From: a virus
Virus record (IMG/VR): IMGVR_UViG_3300045988_084534
Coordinates: 1-64,000 of that record
Length of the DNA: 64,000 nt
Reading direction: 5' to 3' (one strand)
The position numbers and the translations under genes were made by a program. Positions 9,314 to 50,064 of this stretch are shown here, in pieces. The first letter of the stretch is position 1; the number at the start of each line of letters is the position of its first letter. Under the pieces are notes generated by a model, which saw only the letters and a list, made by a program, of their open reading frames with translations, made no database searches and was not told the origin of the DNA.

Positions 9314-9886
9314 ATGGAAAATAATAACATTGTATATAAGCATACGAATTTAGAGAATGGATTAGTGTACTATGGAATTACGGATAATTATGATACCAGA
9401 TGGGACAACGGCAAAGGTTATCAAGGTAATAAACAATTTTGGGATGATATTGTAAAATACGGATGGAAAAATTTTAAGCACGAAATAATTAAAAGCGGAC
9501 TTACTAGAGATGAGGCTAAATTTCTTGAGGCGCTCTTGATTCAAGAAACAAAATCATATTTGCCTGAAATTGGATATAATAAACAACTTGGCGAAAAATT
9601 AGAATATGAGGAAATTGGAGCACGAACAAGAAAAGAGAGAAAGAATAAAGCATATGGATTCAATGGGAATAAAAAAGCTGTTGTTTATAAAAACATAACA
9701 TATATGTCAATAACTGAGTTAGCAAATAAAATTGGAGACGACCCAATCGCATTGTCACAGATGCTAAGCCCTGCAAATAGTAGAAAGATGAGAGATGAAT
9801 ATGTTGCCAACGGTCTTAGATATGCAACAGAAGAAGAAGCATATGCTTGTATGAATGATAGATTCGAGCGTTATATTTTGGGCTAA
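9314..9886 (+). CDS. free-standing GIY-YIG homing endonuclease
   Basis: IVYKHTN..NGLVYYGIT..TRW..GKGY..KYGWKNF..EAKFLEALLI. Confidence 0.8.
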   Translation: MENNNIVYKHTNLENGLVYYGITDNYDTRWDNGKGYQGNKQFWDDIVKYGWKNFKHEIIKSGLTRDEAKFLEALLIQETKSYLPEIGYNKQLGEKLEYEEIGARTRKERKNKAYGFNGNKKAVVYKNITYMSITELANKIGDDPIALSQMLSPANSRKMRDEYVANGLRYATEEEAYACMNDRFERYILG

Positions 9887-20763: not shown

Positions 20764-21000
20764 TATTTGCCTATGAAGCGGCGGCTATGTTGGTGTGTTG
20801 CCGTTGAGGTACTATTAGGGTTGTGTGAAATCCAAGTTCCAACTTAGGTTTAGTCAAAAGCCGAAAATAAAAACACTCAAAAATATAAAACGAGCAGATA
20901 GGGAGGACAAGTAGCTCAATGAACTTTGGCATACGTTAATGAAGTCCATAATCTAACTGCTCTAATATATAAACAATAAAACAAAGAAAGGAGGTTGAAG

Positions 21001-32931: not shown

Positions 32932-33435
32932 ATGATTATATGTGGTATTGATGCAAGCACCTCTTGCACTGGATGGAGCATTTTCAAAGATGACAAATTG
33001 ATTACATATGGTGCGATTAAGCCGCATGGTGAAGATTGGCGCGGCAGAGTTATGGATTTAACTATGGCGCTTTCAGAGATATTCAAAATCCATAGACCAA
33101 ATATTATATATATGGAAGATGTGCCAATGAAAAAAGGCTCTTTGACCATTGAAAAGCTAGGAGCGGTTCAAGGTGTTGTATTGGCATTATGTGCGGCATG
33201 TAAAATCAAGCCATGCTTCTTGTTGCCAAGTAAATGGCGTAGCGACCTTAATCTTTTTGATGGAACTAGAGCTGGTCTACAAAGAGATGTTCTGAAGAAA
33301 AAAGCCATAGAGATGGTGAATGAGGAATTTGGATTAAATTTAACATGGGTTGCTCCAAGTAGCAAAAAAAACGACGATGATATAGCAGAGTCCATTTTGA
33401 TTGCTTACTCACAGATAAAACAAAGGGGAGTGTGA
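32932..33435 (+). CDS. RuvC-like Holliday junction resolvase
   Basis: ICGIDASTSCTGW, IYMEDV and DDDIAESILIA are the acidic catalytic positions of the RuvC/RNase H fold. Confidence 0.75.
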   Translation: MIICGIDASTSCTGWSIFKDDKLITYGAIKPHGEDWRGRVMDLTMALSEIFKIHRPNIIYMEDVPMKKGSLTIEKLGAVQGVVLALCAACKIKPCFLLPSKWRSDLNLFDGTRAGLQRDVLKKKAIEMVNEEFGLNLTWVAPSSKKNDDDIAESILIAYSQIKQRGV

Positions 33436-33438
33436 TGA

Positions 33439-33730
33439 ATGGCAAAAACAAACAGTAATTACTCCATCATTGCTGATGTTGAGCTTGAGCTAAAAAATGC
33501 GCAAAAACAATTAAACGAGTTTAGGAAAGATAATAAATTAAATCTTGACTTAAATGTTAAAGGTTCTAAAAGTTTATCTGACGCAGATGGTAAAGTAAAA
33601 AAATTAGATGATTCTACCAGAGACCTAGTTTTTACATATCAGCAATTTAGACAGGTGCTAGATTCTGTTGTTGATGTTACTGGCAAAATGGTGGAACAAG
33701 TCAAGACGCTGGATGCGGCACAGACAGAGT
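33439..33730 (+). CDS. tail tape measure protein, exon 1 of 5
   Basis: Coiled-coil N-terminus. The ORF terminates 8 codons after the proposed splice site. Confidence 0.7.
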
Positions 33731-34997
33731 TAATCTTTAGCTCGCTTTCGTTGTAAAACGATTGAAAAATAACCCATTGAATTGCTGGAAACCCCTTAGA
33801 GCTGTCATGCTAAAGCGGAGAGATGAAATACGCTCAAACGTAAATGCTTGAAAAGTTGATAGATTGGGCAATCAGCAGCTAAGACCCGAATAGGGTAAAG
33901 TTCAACGACTATCCCGTAAGGGAGTACACTACAAGCGATTGGTAGTGGAAGTGGTGGGTATCCTAATAGGATAAAGATATAGTCTGGTCTTATAAGAAAT
34001 TATAAGCGCGTAAGCGAATGTAGGAGTAGCGTCCTTTTAATGTAATGATAAGACAAATATTCATAAGGAGGTGAATATGTGTATAGAAGAAAAATAGATT
34101 ATAATTTAGTAAAATCTGAGTTTGATGAGCGTGGATACGAATTATTATCTACAGAATATGTGAATAATGTTACGAAATTGCAATATGTTTGCCCAAAACA
34201 CAGAAACAAAGGTATTTTAGAAACTACATTTGCTAATTTTACAAAGGGAAAAGGATGCCCATATTGTGCAAATAGAGTAAAAAAGACACAAGAAGAATAT
34301 GAGGCAGAGTTAGCAATAAAAAAGCCAACAATTAAAGTAATTGGGAAATATATAAATCTTAAAACAAAGATAGAACATGAATGTGTTGTCTGTGGCTATC
34401 GTTGGGATGTATTGCCAGATAATATGCTACATATGTCAAACGGTTGTCCTAAATGCGGGAAAAGAGCACCATTGAATCAAAATGAGTTAATAAATAGGAT
34501 TGCTAAAATAGATGATTCTATTGAGGTTGTTGGAGAATATTATAATACTGCAACGAAAATGTCTTTTAGGTGTAAGAAATGTGGAAATGTTTGGGAGGCT
34601 AAACCAAATAATATATTGAATGGCAAAGGATGTCCAAATTGCAAATCGTCTAAAGGAGAAAAAGAGGTTGCACGCATTCTTGATGAACTCGATGTATTGT
34701 ATAAACCACAATTTAAGTTTCAGGATTGTAAAGATGAATTGCCACTTCCATTTGACTTTTATCTTCCAGATTATAATATTTGCATAGAATATGATGGTGG
34801 ACAACATTATAAGCCATGCACATTCGGTGGTATTTCTAAAGAGCAAGCAAGAGTGAATTTTGAGCTTGCTAAGAAACATGATAGAATCAAAGATGCGTAT
34901 TGCAAACAACACAACATAAAATTAGTAAGAATCCCGTATTGGGAATATAAAAATATAAGAAATATATTATCATTACATTTACATTAAACACAAAACG
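33731..34997 (+). mobile_element. group I intron (TMP intron 1) with PD-(D/E)XK-type endonuclease gene
   Basis: P1: gagT (33727-30) / Gctc (33740-43). P7: gactatc (33907-13) / gatatagtc (33976-84). Ends in G34997. The join gives ..AAQTEFKKVSDLSG.., which is in frame. Confidence 0.8.
34079..34987 (+). CDS. intron-encoded endonuclease: three Zn-ribbon modules plus C-terminal Vsr/PD-(D/E)XK-like nuclease
   Basis: Repeated C..H/CPxC modules (CPKH..CPYC, CVVCG..CPKCG, CKKCG..CPNC). C-terminal FDFYLP..ICIEYDGGQHY..DRIKDAYC..NIKLVRIPY. Confidence 0.65.
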   Translation: MYRRKIDYNLVKSEFDERGYELLSTEYVNNVTKLQYVCPKHRNKGILETTFANFTKGKGCPYCANRVKKTQEEYEAELAIKKPTIKVIGKYINLKTKIEHECVVCGYRWDVLPDNMLHMSNGCPKCGKRAPLNQNELINRIAKIDDSIEVVGEYYNTATKMSFRCKKCGNVWEAKPNNILNGKGCPNCKSSKGEKEVARILDELDVLYKPQFKFQDCKDELPLPFDFYLPDYNICIEYDGGQHYKPCTFGGISKEQARVNFELAKKHDRIKDAYCKQHNIKLVRIPYWEYKNIRNILSLHLH

Positions 34998-35086
34998 TTA
35001 AGAAGGTCTCTGACCTGTCTGGTAAAGCATTAGACGCTTATCAAGACAAATTATCAAAAGCCGGTAAGACGGTAGGACGAACTGGT
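34998..35086 (+). CDS. tail tape measure protein, exon 2 of 5 (89 nt)
   Basis: Encodes (F)KKVSDLSGKALDAYQDKLSKAGKTVGRTG. Exons 1+2 total 381 nt, which is in frame. Confidence 0.65.
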
Positions 35087-35423
35087 AAACCAAATCGGTC
35101 TGAGCCAGTATGTACAGATGGTAAATGTGCATAAGGAACAGCCCCTAAACCCTTGAAAGCCTCAAGAGCCTTATCACTACAACATGAGGATGAGATATGC
35201 CTGAGTGTGAATGATTCATTAGTAATGAACAATTAGTGCGAAAGCAGAAAGACGATAAGGATGATTCCATGGGCGAAAGACCTAAAGAATCTGTCATAAA
35301 TAATGTATGATAAAAGGGCAGATTGGGCGCGAAGCCGTGATGAGCGGTGTGTCAACAGAATATACAGGGCGGCCCTCCAAATATATAGGGTGAAGAATTA
35401 TTCGGGAAGGGATTGAAAACCTC

Positions 35424-35452
35424 TTGACAAATTATCTAAGATGTGCTATTGT
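35424..35452 (+). promoter_or_regulatory. sigma-A-like promoter inside the intron, upstream of the cargo ORF
   Basis: TTGACA (35424-29), 17 nt, TGcTATTGT (35447-52). Confidence 0.55.
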
Positions 35453-35487
35453 ATAGATACAATAAATAAAGAAACGAGGTATCTATT

Positions 35488-35703
35488 ATGTTCTTGTCTG
35501 TTATGACCTTTATTATCATTGGCCCGATGCTTGTTATCTCTGGGATTGTCGCGCTGATTAAGGAGCTTTCAAACAGCGGGAAAGGCGATAATCAGAGTCA
35601 GTCGAATCAGAATAAATATAACATTCGCTATGAAACGCCGGAAGAAGAAGAGCGGCGAATCAATGAATGGGGTTATGATGATGAAAGGTGGGGCAGATTG
35701 TGA
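35488..35703 (+). CDS. intron-borne small membrane protein (71 aa), function unknown
   Basis: RBS acgaggt 7-8 nt upstream of the ATG. The N-terminal hydrophobic stretch MFLSVMTFIIIGPMLVISGIVALI looks like a TM helix, followed by a charged tail. The stop lies 5 nt before P7'. Confidence 0.6.
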   Translation: MFLSVMTFIIIGPMLVISGIVALIKELSNSGKGDNQSQSNQNKYNIRYETPEEEERRINEWGYDDERWGRL

Positions 35704-35784
35704 TTTTTGTATATATCTGGTTTGCTATTATGATTGTATTTACCATTCTTTGTGTATTTGATTTTAGATAATTTGTAATCACTG

Positions 35785-35997
35785 TCAGAAATGATTTCTG
35801 CTGCATCGCAGTTCAGAAAATCAGGTTTCAATGATGAAGATGCGGCGACATTAGCCAAGGTTGCGGCGCAGTATCAGAACGTAGCCGACACAGCGGTATC
35901 AGCAGAAGATGCAGCAGCTTCTATTACTTCTCAGATTCGTGCATTTGGTGAAGATGCGGCATTTGCTACTACTGTAATTGATGCTTACAACGAGGTT
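35785..35997 (+). CDS. tail tape measure protein, exon 3 of 5
   Basis: SEMISAASQFRKSGFNDEDAATLAKV..AYNEV; 213 nt, in frame. Confidence 0.7.
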
Positions 35998-37233
35998 TAA
36001 TTTTGTAGACCTCTATAAACAGGGTGAATTGCTGGAAACCTAAACTCATATAGAGCATGGTAATCAGCAGCCAAGATTGAGATGAAATGCTCAATAAGGT
36101 TCAGAGACTATCGAAAGCATAATAAATAAAAGTGGGAATATACCACTTGAAGTGAGTAGAGTACACAGTAGTGCTAACTGTGGAAGTGCCCTGCCCTCAT
36201 ATTATATGAGGTGATGATATAGTCCATTCCTATGAGAAATCATAGGCGAGAACTCTATAATAGGTATAATATTTGAAAGAAAAGAAGTTTTGTGTATATG
36301 TGCATATGTTTCCAAATGGGAAAAGATACATTGGTATAACCAGCAAGCGCCCAAATGACAGATGGGAGAGAGGTAGTGGGTATCGTGATAGCTTACCAAT
36401 GCGTAATGCAATAAATAAATATGGATGGGATAATATAGAGCACATAATACTATTTGATGGATTGACACAAGAAGAGGCTTGCAAAAAGGAAGTTGAACTT
36501 ATAGAGAAATATAAAACAAACATTCATAAATACGGCAATCAATATGGATACAACTTAACTGATGGAGGCGAAGGCACTACTGGGCATAAGGTGTCAGAAG
36601 AAAGAAAAGAAATTATGCGCCAACTAAAATTGGGTAAAGTTGGAAAGGATTGTCCAAATTCTCGCCCGATTGTTTGTGATGGGGTTGAGTATGAGAGTTT
36701 AACTGACTTTAAGAATAAGAATAATCATCCAAAAGGCAATATCGCAGCTTGGTTAAATGGTACAGTAGGAATGCCAGAATATTGGTATAATAAACGACTA
36801 CATTATAAAGATTTGGGATTCGATGTTGTTAAATTAGCAGACAATAAAAACCGTGCTAAAAAAGTTGTTGCAGATGGAATTATGTTTGATACGTTAGAAG
36901 ATTGTGCTAATTATTTTGGAGTAGATGCACCAAGGATATGTAATTATCTAAATGGTAAAAATGCTACACCAGACAGAATCATAAATGCAGGACTTAGATA
37001 TGAAGATGAAGATGTGCATGAATTTAAAAGGCAAACTAAAAGAAGTAAGAATAAAATAAAATGTGAAATAGATGGCATTCAATTTAATACACAAGCAGAC
37101 TTAGCGAAATATATAAAAGAAAATAAGGCGACTTTATGGGCTTGGTTTGCTGGGAAAAATCCAATGCCAGAGAAATATGTAAAGAGAGGAATAAAAATTA
37201 TAGAGTAATCTCGGCTCAACTTAGCAAATTGAG
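35998..37233 (+). mobile_element. group I intron (TMP intron 3) with GIY-YIG endonuclease gene
   Basis: P1: gaggtT (35992-97) / Gacctc (36008-13). P7: gactatc (36106-12) / gatatagtc (36216-24). Ends in G37233. Confidence 0.8.
36273..37208 (+). CDS. intron-encoded GIY-YIG homing endonuclease
   Basis: FCVYVHMFPNGKRYIGITS..RW..GSGY..NAINKYGW..EEACKKEVELI; TTG start with a weak RBS. Confidence 0.8.
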   Translation: MKEKKFCVYVHMFPNGKRYIGITSKRPNDRWERGSGYRDSLPMRNAINKYGWDNIEHIILFDGLTQEEACKKEVELIEKYKTNIHKYGNQYGYNLTDGGEGTTGHKVSEERKEIMRQLKLGKVGKDCPNSRPIVCDGVEYESLTDFKNKNNHPKGNIAAWLNGTVGMPEYWYNKRLHYKDLGFDVVKLADNKNRAKKVVADGIMFDTLEDCANYFGVDAPRICNYLNGKNATPDRIINAGLRYEDEDVHEFKRQTKRSKNKIKCEIDGIQFNTQADLAKYIKENKATLWAWFAGKNPMPEKYVKRGIKIIE

Positions 37234-37709
37234 TCAAATATCAAGGCAAACAATTTTAGTGTAGGCACTAATGATTTAGCAAGTGCCATGGAAGTTGCGT
37301 CTAGTGGGCTTGCAACATATGGGAATGAATTTTCTGAGGTACTAGGATTAGTAACAGCAGGCACAGAAATTATGCAAGGGAGATCATTGCAGGTTGCACG
37401 CGGGTTATCAACGATTGCCTCCCGCATTGCAAAAAATCAAGATGCCCTTGCAGAATATGGAATAGCAGTTCAAGATGCCAATGGCAATCTAAAGAGCACA
37501 TATGATGTTCTTGCAGAATTAAAGCCAAAATGGGATCAAATGACCGATGCTCAAAGAGTAGCATTGGGTGACACTCTTGCTGGAACCAATCAATACAAAG
37601 TCCTTGCCGCCGTACTCCAGAATTTTGAGCACGCAACAGCGGCGACTGAAACAGCCCTTAATTCCGCTGGCTCTGCGGCACAGGAAAACGCGAAGTACCT
37701 AGAGAGCCT
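37234..37709 (+). CDS. tail tape measure protein, exon 4 of 5
   Basis: SNIKANNFSVGTNDLASAMEVASSGLATYG..GRSLQVARGLSTIASR..LGDTLAGTNQYKVL is typical of the TP901-type TMP core. Confidence 0.75.
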
Positions 37710-38033
37710 TAACAAAATGGGGTTCTATAAACAAGTCTAATTGCGGGAACACCCTTAGAGCCTTATCAACCAAGTTTTAATAGGAATATTAAGATGGCGA
37801 GGTTAGTGACCGAGGTATGGTAAAATTGATAAGGATTGGGCAACCAGACGCAACCAAGCGTCCAGAACGGACGAAGGCTCATCGACCATCCCTTAATATG
37901 GGAGTAGGAGAAAGTGCTAGTCTCCGAAATGGCTTGACTTGCATAAGCAAGTATGATATGGTCAGTTCTCATATGAAAATATGAGCGGTAGATGTCTACG
38001 ACTAAGATTTAGCACATCTTAGTGAACATAAAG
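37710..38033 (+). mobile_element. ORF-less group I intron (TMP intron 4, 324 nt)
   Basis: P1: agccT (37705-09) / Gggtt (37720-24). P7: gaccatc (37884-90) / gatatggtc (37955-63), which is a compensated variant of the family P7. Ends in G38033. The join gives ..YLESLEAREQSIKAEF.. Confidence 0.7.
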
Positions 38034-41000
38034 CGAAGCCCGCGAACAATCCATCAAAGCAGAATTTGAGGATTTTGCAAATCGCGTATTATCCAAAGAA
38101 GTAGTAGCAGGATTTTATGATGCTACTGAAGCGGCATTACAATTTATTAACACAGATTTTGGTGCAGCCACCACGAGAATCATAGGCACAACAACGGCTA
38201 TTACAAGTCTGGTTGGTATTCTTGGCACAATGGGCGCAAAATTGGTGCTTGTTGGTAAACAGCTACAGGCGGCTGGTGCGGCTAATGGCGTTCTTGGATT
38301 CCTTACTACGCCTAAGACACTGCTTATTATAGCTGGCGTGGTAGCCGCTATTGCTGGCTTAGTTGAGGTTATTAAGTCGGTTGAAAAAGCTCAATATGAG
38401 GCAAATCATGCTTTTGAGATAGCAAATCAAAAATTATCTGAGACACAAAACGAAATTAAGTCTACTGAGGAAAATTTACAAAGTTATAAAAATTCTCTTA
38501 AAGAACTTAATGATGTGGCTGAAAAAGATAGAGGTCTTGCTTGGCAACAAGAACGTGCTGAAATTGAATTAAATATTCAAAGTACAGAGACATACTTAAA
38601 GCTGTTAGAGCAAAAAGCCAAGTTAGAAGCGCAAACGGCGTATGAATCTAAGTTGCCAACTGGTTATACACTTGCAGGCAACCTAAACGAAAATAAATAT
38701 AAGACCGAAGATTATTTTGGCGACTATTTTGCACCTGGCAATTCCCAAGTACAGTTGTCTATGGAGCAAGCTGGTGTTATAACGGCTGTGTATGACAGCG
38801 AATACGAGGCATTATCTAACATCGTTTTAGCACTTGCAAATGCTACAGATGAGCGCTATAGATACATCGAGGCAGAAGATTTAGCTCAACTTGAAGGCAA
38901 ATCAACTGAAGAACAAATTCAGATTATGACTGATTTGTTAGGTAATTTGGGAATCAAGTTGTCCGCTACCACTGAAACGGCTACGCAATCTTTTGCCGCA
39001 ATGGATAATCTTGCCAATAAATCTGGAGAACTTTCAACTAAAGAGAAAGATTTGGCGCAACGATACTTAGACCTGTATCGAAATATTGTTATCCTTGGTG
39101 TGGCAACCGATGAACAAACAAACAGCTATATTCAACTATTGGCTAGAATGTCTGCATTTGACTTGGAGACGGCTAGCACAACAGAAAAGATTAGTTGGTT
39201 AGCAAATGCTTTTGGTATAACAGCTAGTGAATCTGCAAATCTATTATATGCAACTGGTCAATTATCTCTGATTCAGGCTCAAGCTGCACGCGACATGGTA
39301 CAACTTTCTAACGGTATGTGGGCTGCTAAATCTGCGTGTAAACAACTTGACGATGGGACATGGGAATTAAAAGAAAATTTAGACGAAACCGACGATTCAG
39401 CAGAAGACTTGTCCGATTCTCTCAATGCCTATCAAAAATCCATCAAGCAAGTAACCGATGATGAAAAAGCATTTGTCAATTCGCTATTTGATATGAATGG
39501 CAATTTGACCAAAGCGGCTCAACAAGCTCTTACCGCTGATAGTGCTATGGCGAGTTATGCACAGAAAATCCTAGAGGCTCAACAAGCACAAACGCAGTCT
39601 GATTATTCTAATTTAATACTTCAAATTGGTAAGGTTGGAGAAGCAGCTTACGTTAGTAGTAATAGATTACAGTCTTTGATTGCTAGCATTCCGGGCGTTA
39701 CTTCTAGTACATGGTCTGCTGAAAATCAGGAATCTGTGATGCGCCGATTGTTTAACAAGCAAACGGGCAAGAACTGGAAACAAGACGCGGCAGCATATAG
39801 TGAATGGTCATCGAATTATTTGTTAAATTTGAGCCAAAAAAAATATGAAGAACGCTTAAAAGAGCTACAAAATCAAGCAAATGCTATATCTTCATTTGTT
39901 CCATCTACAGGTGGCGGAGGTGGCTCATCTTCTACAACATCTCAAAAATCCCCGGCTCAAATTGCGGCAGAAGCGGCAACGAAAGCGGCTAAGTATAGAC
40001 TAGATGCCTTACAAGATGAGCTTGATGCGCTCAACGATGAAAAATCGGCACTAGAAGATGAAATTCAGCGAATCCAAGATGAGGTCAAGGCTGAATATCA
40101 GGCTGAGATTGATATTCTCAACGATAAGAAAGAGGCTATCCAAGAGGCATATGAGGCATGGGAAGAAGATGCTGATGCTGTACTTGATAGACTCAAAGCA
40201 GAAAAGGACGCTATTCAAGCAGTCATTGACGCTATTGACAAAGAGAAAGAACAACTTGAAGCGGCGACCGCCTATGCTACTGAATATGCCTCTAGGCAGA
40301 TTGATGAAATTGACGCGCGGCTAGATGAGCTAGATGCCCGTGAAGCCGAAATCAATAAAAAATATGATGACGAGCTAGACAAGCTAAAAGCGACCAATAA
40401 AGAGCTGGACAAGCAAATTGAGCGCGAGAAGCTGCTACAAAATCTAGCATCTGCTAAAAATAAGAAAAAGCGGGTATATTCGGCGCAACAGGGTTATATC
40501 CTAGTTGATGATATTGCCGCAATTTCTAAAGCACAGGCAGAGCTTGATAAATTTGACCGTCAGCAAAAACAATCTCTTGAGAAACAGGAGATTGAAAATA
40601 AACGCAAACAAGAGCTGTTAGCATCTGGTGTCGAGGCTGAACGCGCGGCATTAGAAGAGCAGAAAAAGCTCTGGGAAGAATATAGTAAAAAATGGTCTAG
40701 TATTGTTTCTGACTATGAGTTCAAGCAAAATAGACTAGCTTATATTCAGCGATATGGTAAGGCTATTGAGCAACAGAACTGGCAACAGCGCAATAGAACG
40801 GTTGACCAAGCTACCAAAGAATACGCTGATATTATGGCGCGGCTATTGGCTGAACAAGAGCGGATGGCGGCTAAAGAGGCTGAAATTGCGGCTCAAGAGG
40901 CGGCAATGGACGAAGCCAGAATTGCCAATCAGAAAGCAACTGCCGCTATTGAAAAGCAAATCAGCGACCTACAAGATGAAATGGTGGCGGCTCAAGAAGC

Positions 41001-41652
41001 CAGAACTCGCAAGCAAGTAGAATCTCTAAATGCACTGGCTGATGCTATCGAGGACGCTCAAAGGCGTGTTAATCAAGCGCAGAAAGATTATGACTCCGCA
41101 CAAGAAGATGAGGGCGCATATGATGTAGATAAGCCGCGTGTTCTAAAGCAAGTGGGCGGCAAAGCTCCCGATGATGCCAAGGTAGGCGATTATATTGCTA
41201 CGGCAGATGGCATTTATCATATTACTGGCGGATACGCTGGACATTGGAAGAGTAGACGAGTGAGCGGTACTGAGGGGCGTTCCGACTTAAATAATGCGAG
41301 AGCAGCGGCTAATTGGCTAGTTAAAAATGGCTATTTGACCGCTGGCGAATTTGGCTATAGGAGCGGAACAACATCTGCCACACCGGGCTTACATATGCTC
41401 GGTGAAAATGGCCCAGAGCTAGGCGTGTTAAGTCGCGGCGATGGGGTCATCCCAGCCGATATAACCAGAAACCTGATGAACATAGGCAAGAATCCAGAGA
41501 AATTTGCAAATGCCGCTGTTGCCAGAAATGGCGGCGATATTATCATGCAAGGCGTTACTTTGGCATTCCCCAATGTGCGTGATGGCAGTGATGCCGCAAC
41601 ATTCACTAAGAATTTTGTCAACTTGGCGCATCAATATGCCTATAAGCGATAA
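38034..41652 (+). CDS. tail tape measure protein, exon 5 of 5
   Basis: The frame is open from 38032. TM segment (LLIIAGVVAAIAGLV), very long coiled-coil, C-terminal GENGPELGVLSRGDGVIP. The spliced total is 4689 nt, or 1562 aa. Confidence 0.8.
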
Positions 41653-48203: not shown

Positions 48204-48410
48204 ATGACAAATATTGAATTGGCAAAAAAGCACGAAGATGTAGCTAAGAAATATAAGACAGTATATATGTGGGGCTGTTTTGGTCATCCAGTGACCGAGG
48301 CGATTATCAGAGAAAAGGCGGCGCAATATCCTAGTTGGTATACAGCGGCAAAGCAGAGAGAACTAAGAAAGCTGGTCGGCAAGGGATATTTTGCATTTGA
48401 CTGTGTAAAT
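48204..48410 (+). CDS. NlpC/P60-like cell-wall endopeptidase (endolysin), exon 1 of 2 (3' boundary +/-15 nt)
   Basis: ..YMWGCFG..GYFAFDCVN contains the catalytic-Cys FDC motif. The ORF stops 8 codons later. Confidence 0.6.
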
Positions 48411-50064
48411 CTCACTGACTTTAGTGCGCAATAATAGTAATGTTATTGTGTGTTTATTTGAATTGCTGGAAACCCCTTAGAGACATATCAACCACAACGT
48501 AGCTATGAAATATGGGCAAGCGTGATGGTTTGAAAATGATATAGATTGGGCAATCAGCAGCGAAGCTCCGAATAGGAGAACGTTCAACGACTATCCTGTT
48601 AGAGGGAGTACAACGCAAACGATTGGCGTTGGAAGCGGATAAGACCCTATTATATAGGGTGATGATATAGTCTCATCTCATATGAAAGTATGAGGAAAAT
48701 TGTTTGAGTTCACTTATAATACTATAAAAGCAAGGAGGTGGGTATGTGGACAAAAACAGACAACATTACAAGATGTCATTGCTTAAATGGTGTGAATCGA
48801 ATAATAGTAATTTGGTTTACGAATGGGATGAAGCAAATGAAATGGCTATGAACGAGATTGGGTCAAGTAGTGGAATAAAAGTGAAATGGATATGCTCTAG
48901 GTGTGGTTTTCATTTTGAGCAAAGACCTTCAGATAGGGTGAGGGGGCATGGTTGTCCAAAGTGTGCTAGAAAATCTCATTCAAGCGTCCCCGAAACGATA
49001 TGTTATTTGGCTATCAAGCAGTATTTTTCAGATGCGATACATGGATATAAAACCGATTGGCTTGGACGTAAAGAATTGGACATCTTTATCCCATCTATTA
49101 GTGTTGGCATTGAATATGATGGAAATTCTTGGCATAATAAATCCAGAAAACGAACAGATAATGACAAGACGTGGCTATGCGCCCAGCATAATATCTTGAT
49201 CTATCGTATAAGAGAAAACGGATGCGAACCAATGGACGACGAGTCAAATAATATTTATTACAAGCCAAGCAAACAATACAATGCTCTTAAGTATTCTATT
49301 ATAGATGTACTAATGAGGCTTGGACATAATAATGTTGCTTTTGATGACTGGGAGTCGCTTATTAATAAGTCTAAATGTGAATTTTCCAGTATTGAAAGAA
49401 GTAAATCTATTGGTGTAATAAATCCAGAATTTAGTGCAAAATGGGATTACGACAAAAATTATCCTTTAACGCCATATGATATATTGGCTCATTCCAATCA
49501 TAAAGTATGGTTAAGATGTGATAAAGGACATTTGTATAAAAGAGCGCCAAACTATTCAAATCAAAAAGAATGCCCCATATGTATAAATAAAATTGTGCTT
49601 GAGGGCTATAATGATTTGGCAACAATAAGACCAGATTTGGCGTTGGATTGGAATTATGATAGAAATGGCGAATTAAAGCCAACGGAAATAACGTTCGGTT
49701 CTAATCGACGTATTTGGTGGAAATGCCATGCTTGCGGAAACGAATTTCAATCATCTCCAAATGCTAGAAAAGATAATATGGGACATTGTTCAAAATGTGT
49801 GTTCACCAATGGCAATGAAACATTATCAAAAAACAAAGCGGTTAATAATAGTCTTGCTGAGTTTTATCCAGAAATCGCAAAAGAATGGGATTATAACAAT
49901 AATGAAAGAACGCCAGACAATGTTGCAAGGATGTCTGGATTGGAAGCGTGGTGGATTTGTTCAAACGGTCATTCTTGGAAGGCTAGTGTTCATAGTCGAA
50001 CGCATGATGGGAAAAAGTGTCCATATTGTAAACAAACTCAAACAATAAACTGCTAGGCGTAGTG
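48411..50064 (+). mobile_element. group I intron in the endolysin gene with a large Zn-ribbon/PD-(D/E)XK endonuclease gene (boundaries approximate)
   Basis: Core elements match TMP intron 1: a 23-nt identity at 48460-82 and the agattgggcaatcagcagc segment at 48543-61. P7: gactatc (48589-95) / gatatagtc (48664-72). The best P1 is gtaaaT (48405-10) / Gtttat (48452-57). Confidence 0.7.
48746..50056 (+). CDS. intron-encoded endonuclease: N-terminal Zn-ribbon plus Vsr/PD-(D/E)XK-like nuclease, then three W-D-Y/Zn-ribbon repeats
   Basis: CSRCG..CPKC; ELDIFIPSISVGIEYDGNSWH..; the repeats (WDYDKN..CPIC, LDWNYDRN..CHACG..CSKC, KEWDYNNN..CPYC) resemble the DUF4379-type zinc-ribbon. Confidence 0.65.
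   Translation: MDKNRQHYKMSLLKWCESNNSNLVYEWDEANEMAMNEIGSSSGIKVKWICSRCGFHFEQRPSDRVRGHGCPKCARKSHSSVPETICYLAIKQYFSDAIHGYKTDWLGRKELDIFIPSISVGIEYDGNSWHNKSRKRTDNDKTWLCAQHNILIYRIRENGCEPMDDESNNIYYKPSKQYNALKYSIIDVLMRLGHNNVAFDDWESLINKSKCEFSSIERSKSIGVINPEFSAKWDYDKNYPLTPYDILAHSNHKVWLRCDKGHLYKRAPNYSNQKECPICINKIVLEGYNDLATIRPDLALDWNYDRNGELKPTEITFGSNRRIWWKCHACGNEFQSSPNARKDNMGHCSKCVFTNGNETLSKNKAVNNSLAEFYPEIAKEWDYNNNERTPDNVARMSGLEAWWICSNGHSWKASVHSRTHDGKKCPYCKQTQTINC

Follow-up and report, generated by a model that had tools for sequence, protein, structure and literature searches.

Four putative group I introns in the tape measure gene of an SPbeta-like gut phage, one of them outside the general Rfam model

Organisation of the tape measure locus

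The DNA analysed here, referred to as the window, is a stretch of 64,000 nucleotides (nt) covering positions 1 to 64,000 of the virus record IMGVR_UViG_3300045988_084534. Positions 33439-41652 hold five coding segments with the character of a phage tail tape measure gene, separated by four intervening blocks (Table 1). The whole region is read as one gene, encoding the tape measure protein of an SPbeta-like phage of gut Clostridia and interrupted by four group I introns, and this reading is given a probability of about 0.88.

The five segments were first outlined in an initial annotation made from the sequence alone, in which they summed to 4689 nt in one frame with a single terminal stop. This arithmetic was found to be right. 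The predicted product of 1562 amino acids (aa) was not retained, as a correction of 12 nt at the 3′ end of intron 3 gives a frame of 4677 nt and a protein of 1558 aa. In the corrected numbering introns 1 and 4 lie at codons 98 and 353, and introns 2 and 3 follow codons 127 and 198. The last base of each 5′ exon is U and, as had been proposed, each intervening block ends in G (G34997, G35784, the revised G37245 and G38033). The exon frames meet stops between 0 and 16 codons beyond each 5′ splice site. Also present are the three open reading frames (ORFs) that had been placed within introns, while the fourth block of 324 nt contains none.

Removal of each block restores an uninterrupted frame, and the spliced protein is recognised as a unit by domain models. 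PF10145 matches aa 114-315 in one stretch over the full profile (66.6 bits, cut-off 33.2), and TIGR01760 (tape_meas_TP901) matches aa 83-373, also in one stretch (78.2 bits, cut-off 28.8). The stretches matched by these models span all four joins. Matches of such strength, like those of the Rfam model to three of the blocks, greatly exceed what chance would give. The tape measure protein of Enterocloster phage PMBT24 aligns in a single piece to aa 1-397 of the spliced product. Separate translation of the pieces is impossible because exon 2 has no start codon. The gene order is the same in the close relatives L056 and L058, where a 354-aa YomU_Tube gene lies upstream of the tape measure gene; an ORF of 354 aa is found upstream in the window as well.

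Table 1. Features of the tape measure locus, in window positions
Feature	Position	Strand	Description
ORF, 354 aa	30581-31645		upstream of tape measure gene
Tape measure exon 1	33439-33730	+	292 nt; aa 1-97 and one base of codon 98
Intron 1	33731-34997	+	1267 nt; group I core 33731-34006, then endonuclease ORF; last base G34997
Intron 1 ORF	34079-34987	+	302 aa; putative homing endonuclease, CapR-like zinc-finger repeats and C-terminal nuclease-like domain
Tape measure exon 2	34998-35086	+	89 nt; own start codon absent
Intron 2	35087-35784	+	698 nt; last base G35784
Intron 2 P1	35081-86/35104-09		U35086.G35104
Intron 2 P10	35099-103 with 35785-89		
Intron 2 P2	35110-16/35126-32		
Intron 2 P3	35141-44/35367-70		
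Intron 2 P4	35150-54/35314-18		
Intron 2 P5	35169-75/35254-60		extended
Intron 2 P6	35326-30/35349-53		
Intron 2 P6a	35334-37/35345-48		
Intron 2 P7	C35356-G35404, then 35358-62/35399-403		bulged A35357
Intron 2 P8	35373-76/35387-90		
Intron 2 J8/7	35391-98		UGAAGAAU
Intron 2 P9	35407-11/35421-25		
Promoter-like site in intron 2	35424-35452	+	TTGACA, 17 nt, TATTGT; TG upstream of second hexamer
Intron 2 ORF	35488-35703	+	71 aa; one N-terminal hydrophobic helix, charged tail ending RINEWGYDDERWGRL
Tape measure exon 3	35785-35997	+	213 nt; 71 aa
Intron 3	35998-37245	+	1248 nt (revised); core 35998-36246, then GIY-YIG ORF
Intron 3 ORF	36273-37208	+	311 aa; putative GIY-YIG-type homing endonuclease
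Intron 3, 3′ part	37215-19/37229-33		hairpin, then 12-nt tail to G37245
Tape measure exon 4	37246-37709	+	464 nt; start revised
Intron 4	37710-38033	+	324 nt; no ORF; last base G38033
Tape measure exon 5	38034-41652	+	3619 nt with stop

Exon joins and the 3′ end of intron 3

A metagenomic protein search returned 72 tape measure homologs, and the joins were read in a multiple alignment with 14 aligned homologs at join 3. Many of the 72 matches start right behind join 2 and extend across joins 3 and 4; a second set covers joins 1 to 3 from residue 1 onward and ends at join 4. Close relatives that lack single introns fix three of the joins at the DNA level (33730/34998, 35997/37246 and 37709/38034; a slash marks the join), and 35086/35785 is fixed by protein alignment to a 51%-identical protein. 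All four corrected joins equal those of intron-less homologs with no insertion or deletion (indel).

Join 1 reads TEF/KKVSDLSG, which is the consensus of the homologs without an indel, and L056, from which intron 1 is absent, reads CAGACAGAAT-TTCGCAAAGTC across the same site. In exon 2, KKVSDLSGKALDAYQDKLSKAGKTVGRTG aligns without gaps to the uninterrupted homologs P0013, P0031 and P0012. The second join, GRTG/SEMISAA, fits the consensus ARTxSEMVxAA, again with no indel. At join 4 the sequence ESL/EA is the consensus of the homologs, free of indels, and YLESL/EAREQSIKAEFEDFANRVLS fits YMESLEAKQQALKAEFEDFANRVLS in P0001 and P0002. L058, which does not carry intron 4, reads GAATCATT-AGAAGCCCGCGAACAA at this position, and in the homologs P0011 and P0014 the coding sequence continues into this same intron 4 (ESLNKMG).

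Nine of the ten boundaries originally proposed agree with intron-less relatives, the tenth being the start of exon 4, which was placed at 37234 and is corrected to 37246. If the original boundaries were all right, intron 3 would end at G37233 and the protein of 1562 aa would carry the additional residues SNIK; in a weaker form of this alternative, both 3′ sites would be used alternatively. Position 37233 is indeed a G, the UCAAAU that follows it can make a P10 of 4 base pairs (bp) on the UUUG guide that also serves the downstream site, and the 12 nt keep the frame in every allele. Alternative splicing of group I introns in phages has also been documented (PMC11878797). The alternative is nevertheless judged very improbable, as the four residues are absent from all 14 aligned homologs, which read NEV/ANNFSVGTNDL identically, and the intron-less L056, L057 and L058 read GAGGTG-GCAAACAAC in their DNA. 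The 12 nt, tcaaatatcaag, are confined to intron-bearing alleles and absent in every intron-less one; they are therefore part of intron 3, which ends at G37245, with exon 4 starting at 37246. All intron-bearing relatives at this site share the arrangement ttgagtcaaata[tc][ca]aag/GCAAACAATTT. G37233 instead closes the hairpin at 37215-19/37229-33 of intron 3, which covaries in relatives (CUCAA/UUGAG to CUCGA/UCGAG), and P10 has 5 bp at the revised site compared with 4 bp at the original one.

The intron-less alleles were observed to differ from the window exons at the insertion sites. The differences comprise GAGGTG as opposed to GAGGTT, GAATCATT/A as opposed to GAGAGCCT/C, and TTCGCAAAG as opposed to TTAAGAAGG, and they are located at 9491-9530 and 10491-10530 of L056 and at 653-692 and 1117-1156 of L058. 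Such differences fit co-conversion tracts or target variants that are resistant to cleavage.

Group I cores of introns 1, 3 and 4

The reading of all four blocks as group I introns in the initial annotation was upheld by the U.G pair of P1, the terminal G and the presence of a core. For introns 1, 3 and 4 the core is matched by the general Rfam model Intron_gpI (RF00028, gathering score 50 bits), with expectation (E) values from 2e-25 to 8e-8, and for intron 2 it takes the form of a hand-drawn fold backed by covariation. The scan with the Rfam model, which had been suggested as a check, thus places introns 1 and 3 above threshold, intron 4 below it, and misses intron 2.

Intron 1 scores 98.6 bits over 33721-34006 and intron 3 scores 82.7 bits over 35988-36246. 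The match of intron 4 covers the full length of the model (37700-37985) at 40 bits and E 8e-8. In the Rfam alignments of these three introns, the U.G pair of P1 sits exactly at the proposed 5′ splice sites (U33730 opposite G33740, U35997 opposite G36008 and U37709 opposite G37720). Each has an insert of about 40 nt between P7 and P3′, corresponding to P7.1/P7.2, which is typical of subgroup IA. Introns 1 and 3 consist of an IA-type core and a putative endonuclease gene, with the ORF following P9 near the 3′ end, and intron 4 is a bare core.

Versions of these introns recur elsewhere. Intron 1 is found at the same site, 92.7% identical, in L014, L025, L027, L039 and L040. In L014, L025, L027, L032 and L042, intron 3 has no ORF and measures 311-366 nt, retaining the first approximately 265 nt and the last approximately 60 nt. 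A 23-mer of the intron 4 core was compared with viral contigs and identified nine unrelated group I introns, all in other genes and hence uninformative on covariation at this site. In a near-identity DNA search of the phage collection, the sole match was 124 nt in the core of intron 1, to a Bacillus phage, and no close relative emerged there.

Intron 2, a probable divergent group I RNA

Intron 2 gives no match to the Rfam model even at E<=10. Its fold was drawn by hand (Table 1) and scored on 29 relatives, using as a control the same helices with their partners slid. In the fold 98.6% of the cells pair, compared with 30-43% with the partners slid, and 19 of the 60 pairs change on both sides, compared with 0-3 pairs in the control. 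Covariation is seen in P1 (U-A to C-G), P2, P5, P6a, P7 and P8. P3 and P4 are invariant, so that covariation is silent for or against them.

The remaining details of the fold follow the group I plan. P7, with a C-G pair, a bulged A and a G-C pair, has the canonical guanosine-binding layout, and J8/7 is close to the Rfam consensus UGAAGAUA. P10 consists of five perfect pairs and adjoins P1. Compared with the IA-type introns of the same gene, intron 2 has a different P4-P6 domain and does not contain the P7.1/P7.2 insert. Two other readings of parts of the sequence were rejected. A different P3′ partner (GGGC, 35325-28) implied a P7 of 3 bp without the G-C pair, and a hammerhead reading of the motif GUGAUGAG was dropped as this segment is the loop of the covarying hairpin P6a.

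More than 30 viral contigs carry intron 2 after the same RTG codon, and it always ends in G just before TC[AG]GA. Its first approximately 370 nt are 90-94% identical in these contigs, while the flanking exons are only 35-60% identical at the aa level.

Intron 2 could instead be an intervening element of another kind with its own route of excision, or an insertion that splits the gene at codon 127. The missing Rfam match extends to its relatives, it has no endonuclease, its P4′-P6 linker is unusually long at 7 nt, and P3 and P4 are without the support of covariation. This explanation is considered very improbable. The terminal G, the perfect adjacent P10 and the U.G pair of P1 count against it. 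The helix order fits group I, and so do the pseudoknot of P3 with P7, the bulged A in P7 and the UGAAGA of J8/7. P7 in addition shows compensatory changes in the relatives, from C-G to U-A in 5 of 29 and from A-U to G-C in 6 of 29. Exon 3, downstream of the element, has no ribosome-binding site and starts in the middle of a domain. From this fold, intron 2 is concluded to be a probable group I intron of a lineage that lies outside the general Rfam model.

A limited reach of this model is also apparent elsewhere. The relatives L001-L008 gave no Rfam group I match at the gathering score or at E<=0.1, though several of their tape measure genes are split; the model is insensitive to some introns in loci of this type. 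It has been reported that subgroup-specific models are used because RF00028 misses some group I subgroups (PMC12880540), and that the current subgroup scheme falls short of the diversity of phage introns (PMC11878797), which fits the escape of intron 2 from Rfam.

Intron-encoded proteins

The ORF of intron 1 matches Pfam CapR in three stretches (79.7 bits), together with DUF4379 and DUF723. It also matches PHROG 559 (E 1.3e-79) and other PHROGs whose annotation is that of homing or intron-encoded nucleases. A layout combining CapR-like fingers with an EDxHD/Vsr-like domain has been described for a large outgroup of phage-intron homing endonucleases (PMC12350094). The intron 1 ORF shares with these enzymes the repeated CapR/DUF4379/DUF723-like zinc fingers followed by a C-terminal domain of approximately 100 aa. 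Unlike them, its nuclease domain has no demonstrable homology in Pfam and PDB searches, and in Pfam nothing beyond DUF matches below threshold was obtained for the last 112 aa. The PDB sequence search returned weak matches to TRPV6 alone, which were set aside as meaningless. The ORF had been labelled as a PD-(D/E)XK-type nuclease. The layout of the protein fits this label, which is plausible but unproven, as neither Pfam nor PDB matches the nuclease domain significantly.

The ORF of intron 3 is a putative GIY-YIG-type homing endonuclease gene. It matches the Pfam family I-TevI_DNA-bd with 33.1 bits (cut-off 27) and GIY-YIG with 22.3 bits, just below the cut-off of 22.6, as well as PHROG 314 ‘homing endonuclease’ (E 9e-29). 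The endonucleases of introns 1 and 3 would drive the homing of their introns.

Beyond the tape measure gene, the window has a fifth group I intron at 48397-50064, with 93.9 bits in Rfam over 48397-48694 and a core 74% identical to that of intron 1. Joining 48404/50065 (U48404 pairs with G in P1, and G50064 ends the intron) gives an in-frame protein of 233 aa, FAFDC/NLVERKCKGILWGWNG across the join, which belongs to no Pfam family. The ORF of this intron (48746-50056, 436 aa) has four DUF4379 zinc-finger repeats and encodes a putative endonuclease of the same type as in intron 1, again with the zinc-finger and C-terminal domain layout of the PMC12350094 enzymes.

The cargo of intron 2 is of a different nature. 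Its 71-aa product was described in the initial annotation as a small membrane protein, and the hydrophobic helix is seen; it belongs to no Pfam or PHROG family and is not an endonuclease. There are 26 unnamed metagenomic homologs with 59-93% identity, and the median ratio of nonsynonymous to synonymous polymorphism (pN/pS) is 0.37 over 13 alleles. The ORF looks like a real gene. The promoter-like site upstream overlaps the 3′ strand of P9 and is the top-scoring site of the region. TTGACA and a TA...T hexamer are retained in every relative with a complete intron 2, and the site is a candidate promoter. In intron 2 and in its relatives in L002 and L009-L046, a ribosome-binding site comes next and after it small ORFs (one to three, 62-110 aa long), whose products share an N-terminal hydrophobic helix, a charged tail and a C-terminal (D/E)WG(Y/L) motif. 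It is possible, though still doubtful, that intron 2 represents a distinct group I lineage which acts as a gene vehicle, equipped with a sigma-70-type promoter and one to three fast-diversifying, small single-pass membrane proteins.

Distribution among relatives

When the spliced protein was mapped onto the fetched loci, at least seven insertion sites were found in tape measure genes of the family (aa 98, 127, 198, approximately 232, 246, 311 and 353), with independent presence or absence of each intron among the relatives. The public viral contigs L014 and L027 have four introns in the tape measure gene, at 98, 127, 198 and 246, and L025 is interrupted at these four sites as well, up to the point where its stored DNA stops. 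Three of the L014 introns are confirmed by Rfam and the fourth is of the intron 2 type. The close relatives L056 and L058 bear fewer introns. The window gene is thus not unique in public sequence data, as unannotated relatives also have four introns. Overall, the cores share 90-94% identity in phages where the aa identity of the flanking exons is only 35-60%, a pattern that would be expected for mobile elements.

The same data bear on whether the gene could be dead or split, through decay of a prophage or mis-assembly, with its fragments never rejoined. One point for this view is that the exact sequence, like that of the intron 3 ORF, is absent from the searched collections. However, the five exons keep their frame and conserved residues, as the ribozyme cores keep their structure. 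These introns also occur in many independent viral contigs of 80-98 kb with intact neighbouring tail genes, and close relatives differ just by the presence or absence of whole introns. A dead or split gene is the least probable of the alternatives to a functional, intron-bearing tape measure gene.

Gene callers split such tape measure genes, and the pieces are left unnamed or labelled hypothetical. In Enterocloster phage CB457P1 (L001; OP172753.1, 25265-30963), the annotation divides the tape measure homolog into three ‘hypothetical proteins’, between which lies an ORF of 158 aa, and its sister phages (PMBT24 and other CB4xx phages) give one continuous tape measure match. The gene of CB457P1 is probably split by introns, in this case in a cultured phage that grows on E. 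bolteae. Within the genome collection, the intron 2 motif had L046 as its sole match (SFEA01000039.1, 20.8 kb), a contig of a metagenome-assembled genome labelled Bacteroidales, in which the same tape measure gene is interrupted at least three times. The other relatives all point to phages of Clostridia, and the label may be a binning error.

Directly upstream of the tape measure gene, the window has a gene for a RuvC-like Holliday junction resolvase (32932-33435; PHROG 159, E 7e-18). Its position is kept in relatives. A gene of this kind is unusual next to a tail gene, and it adjoins the intron hot-spot. A drum RNA (RF02958) is matched by Rfam on the + strand at 20768-20881, with 53.5 bits (gathering score 43).

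Proposed splicing pathway and comparison with known systems

Under the favoured reading of one gene with four group I introns, the late transcript would be spliced four times to give the 4677-nt frame and the 1558-aa protein. In each splicing event, an external guanosine would attack after the U of the U.G pair in P1, and the freed 5′ exon would then attack after the terminal G of the intron. Splicing in vivo, homing and firing of the internal promoter are predicted here from sequence.

Some points weigh against this reading. Intron 4 falls under the Rfam gathering threshold and has a P10 of just 2 bp. Intron 2 escapes the model altogether, its P3 and P4 are silent in covariation, and three relatives have C-G in place of U.G at its splice site. 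The splicing of the window gene is itself only inferred. Self-splicing without host factors may not be assumed, because four of eight spliced Bastillevirinae genes underwent splicing in infected cells but failed to do so in vitro (PMC11878797).

Tape measure genes with group I introns have been described previously. Tourasse and Kolsto (2008; PMC2504315) reported TMP-IVS1, IVS2 and IVS3 in prophages of the Bacillus cereus group. The two systems are alike in that IA1/IA2 introns occupy several sites of the long tape measure gene in Firmicutes phages and are patchy among strains, some copies have no complete endonuclease gene, and P1 and P10 are fitted to each site. The published case involves three sites and, by its own text, no gene with more than two introns, in contrast to four in one gene and at least seven sites in the family here. 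The phage family also differs, the present phages being SPbeta-like and from the gut, and intron 2 is both missed by Rfam and provided with cargo other than an endonuclease.

Clusters of group I introns are also known from other phage genes. The orf142 gene of Staphylococcus phage Twort has three group I introns, for which splicing and exon skipping were shown experimentally (Landthaler and Shub 1999, as cited in PMC11878797). It resembles the present gene in its clustered introns and in a protein that needs several splicing events, but the gene is a different one, the introns number three rather than four, and splicing is experimental rather than deduced. In Bastillevirinae, the DNA polymerase and large terminase genes each contain two or three group I introns, three being the maximum reported (PMC11878797); these are replication and packaging genes and not a tail gene. 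The terL genes of jumbo gut phages occur in two or three fragments (PMC12880540). Four introns is one more than the maximum of three published for any single phage gene found in the literature. The description of four introns in a tape measure gene as exceptional was too strong in view of the published tape measure introns (PMC2504315) and of L014 and L027, which also carry four. The greatest novelty lies in intron 2, whose cargo is not an endonuclease.

Significance

Four splicing events would be needed to produce the ruler of tail length, with an exon of only 89 nt between two introns. The gene thereby lends itself to studies of splicing order, of exon skipping and of what an intron load costs a structural gene. 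As gene callers cut these genes, tape measure lengths and the tail predictions made from them would be systematically wrong for this group of phages.

Intron 2 indicates that the general Rfam model overlooks a widespread lineage of phage introns. The 90-94% identity of its core in divergent tape measure genes would imply that this intron spread recently, although it has no obvious endonuclease. If its cassette were expressed apart from late transcription, for example in a prophage, it would constitute a moron-like accessory gene carried by a self-splicing intron, with a possible role in superinfection exclusion or lysis control. With at least seven sites that are occupied independently, the conserved N-terminal domain of the tape measure protein appears as a hot-spot of intron invasion in gut phages.

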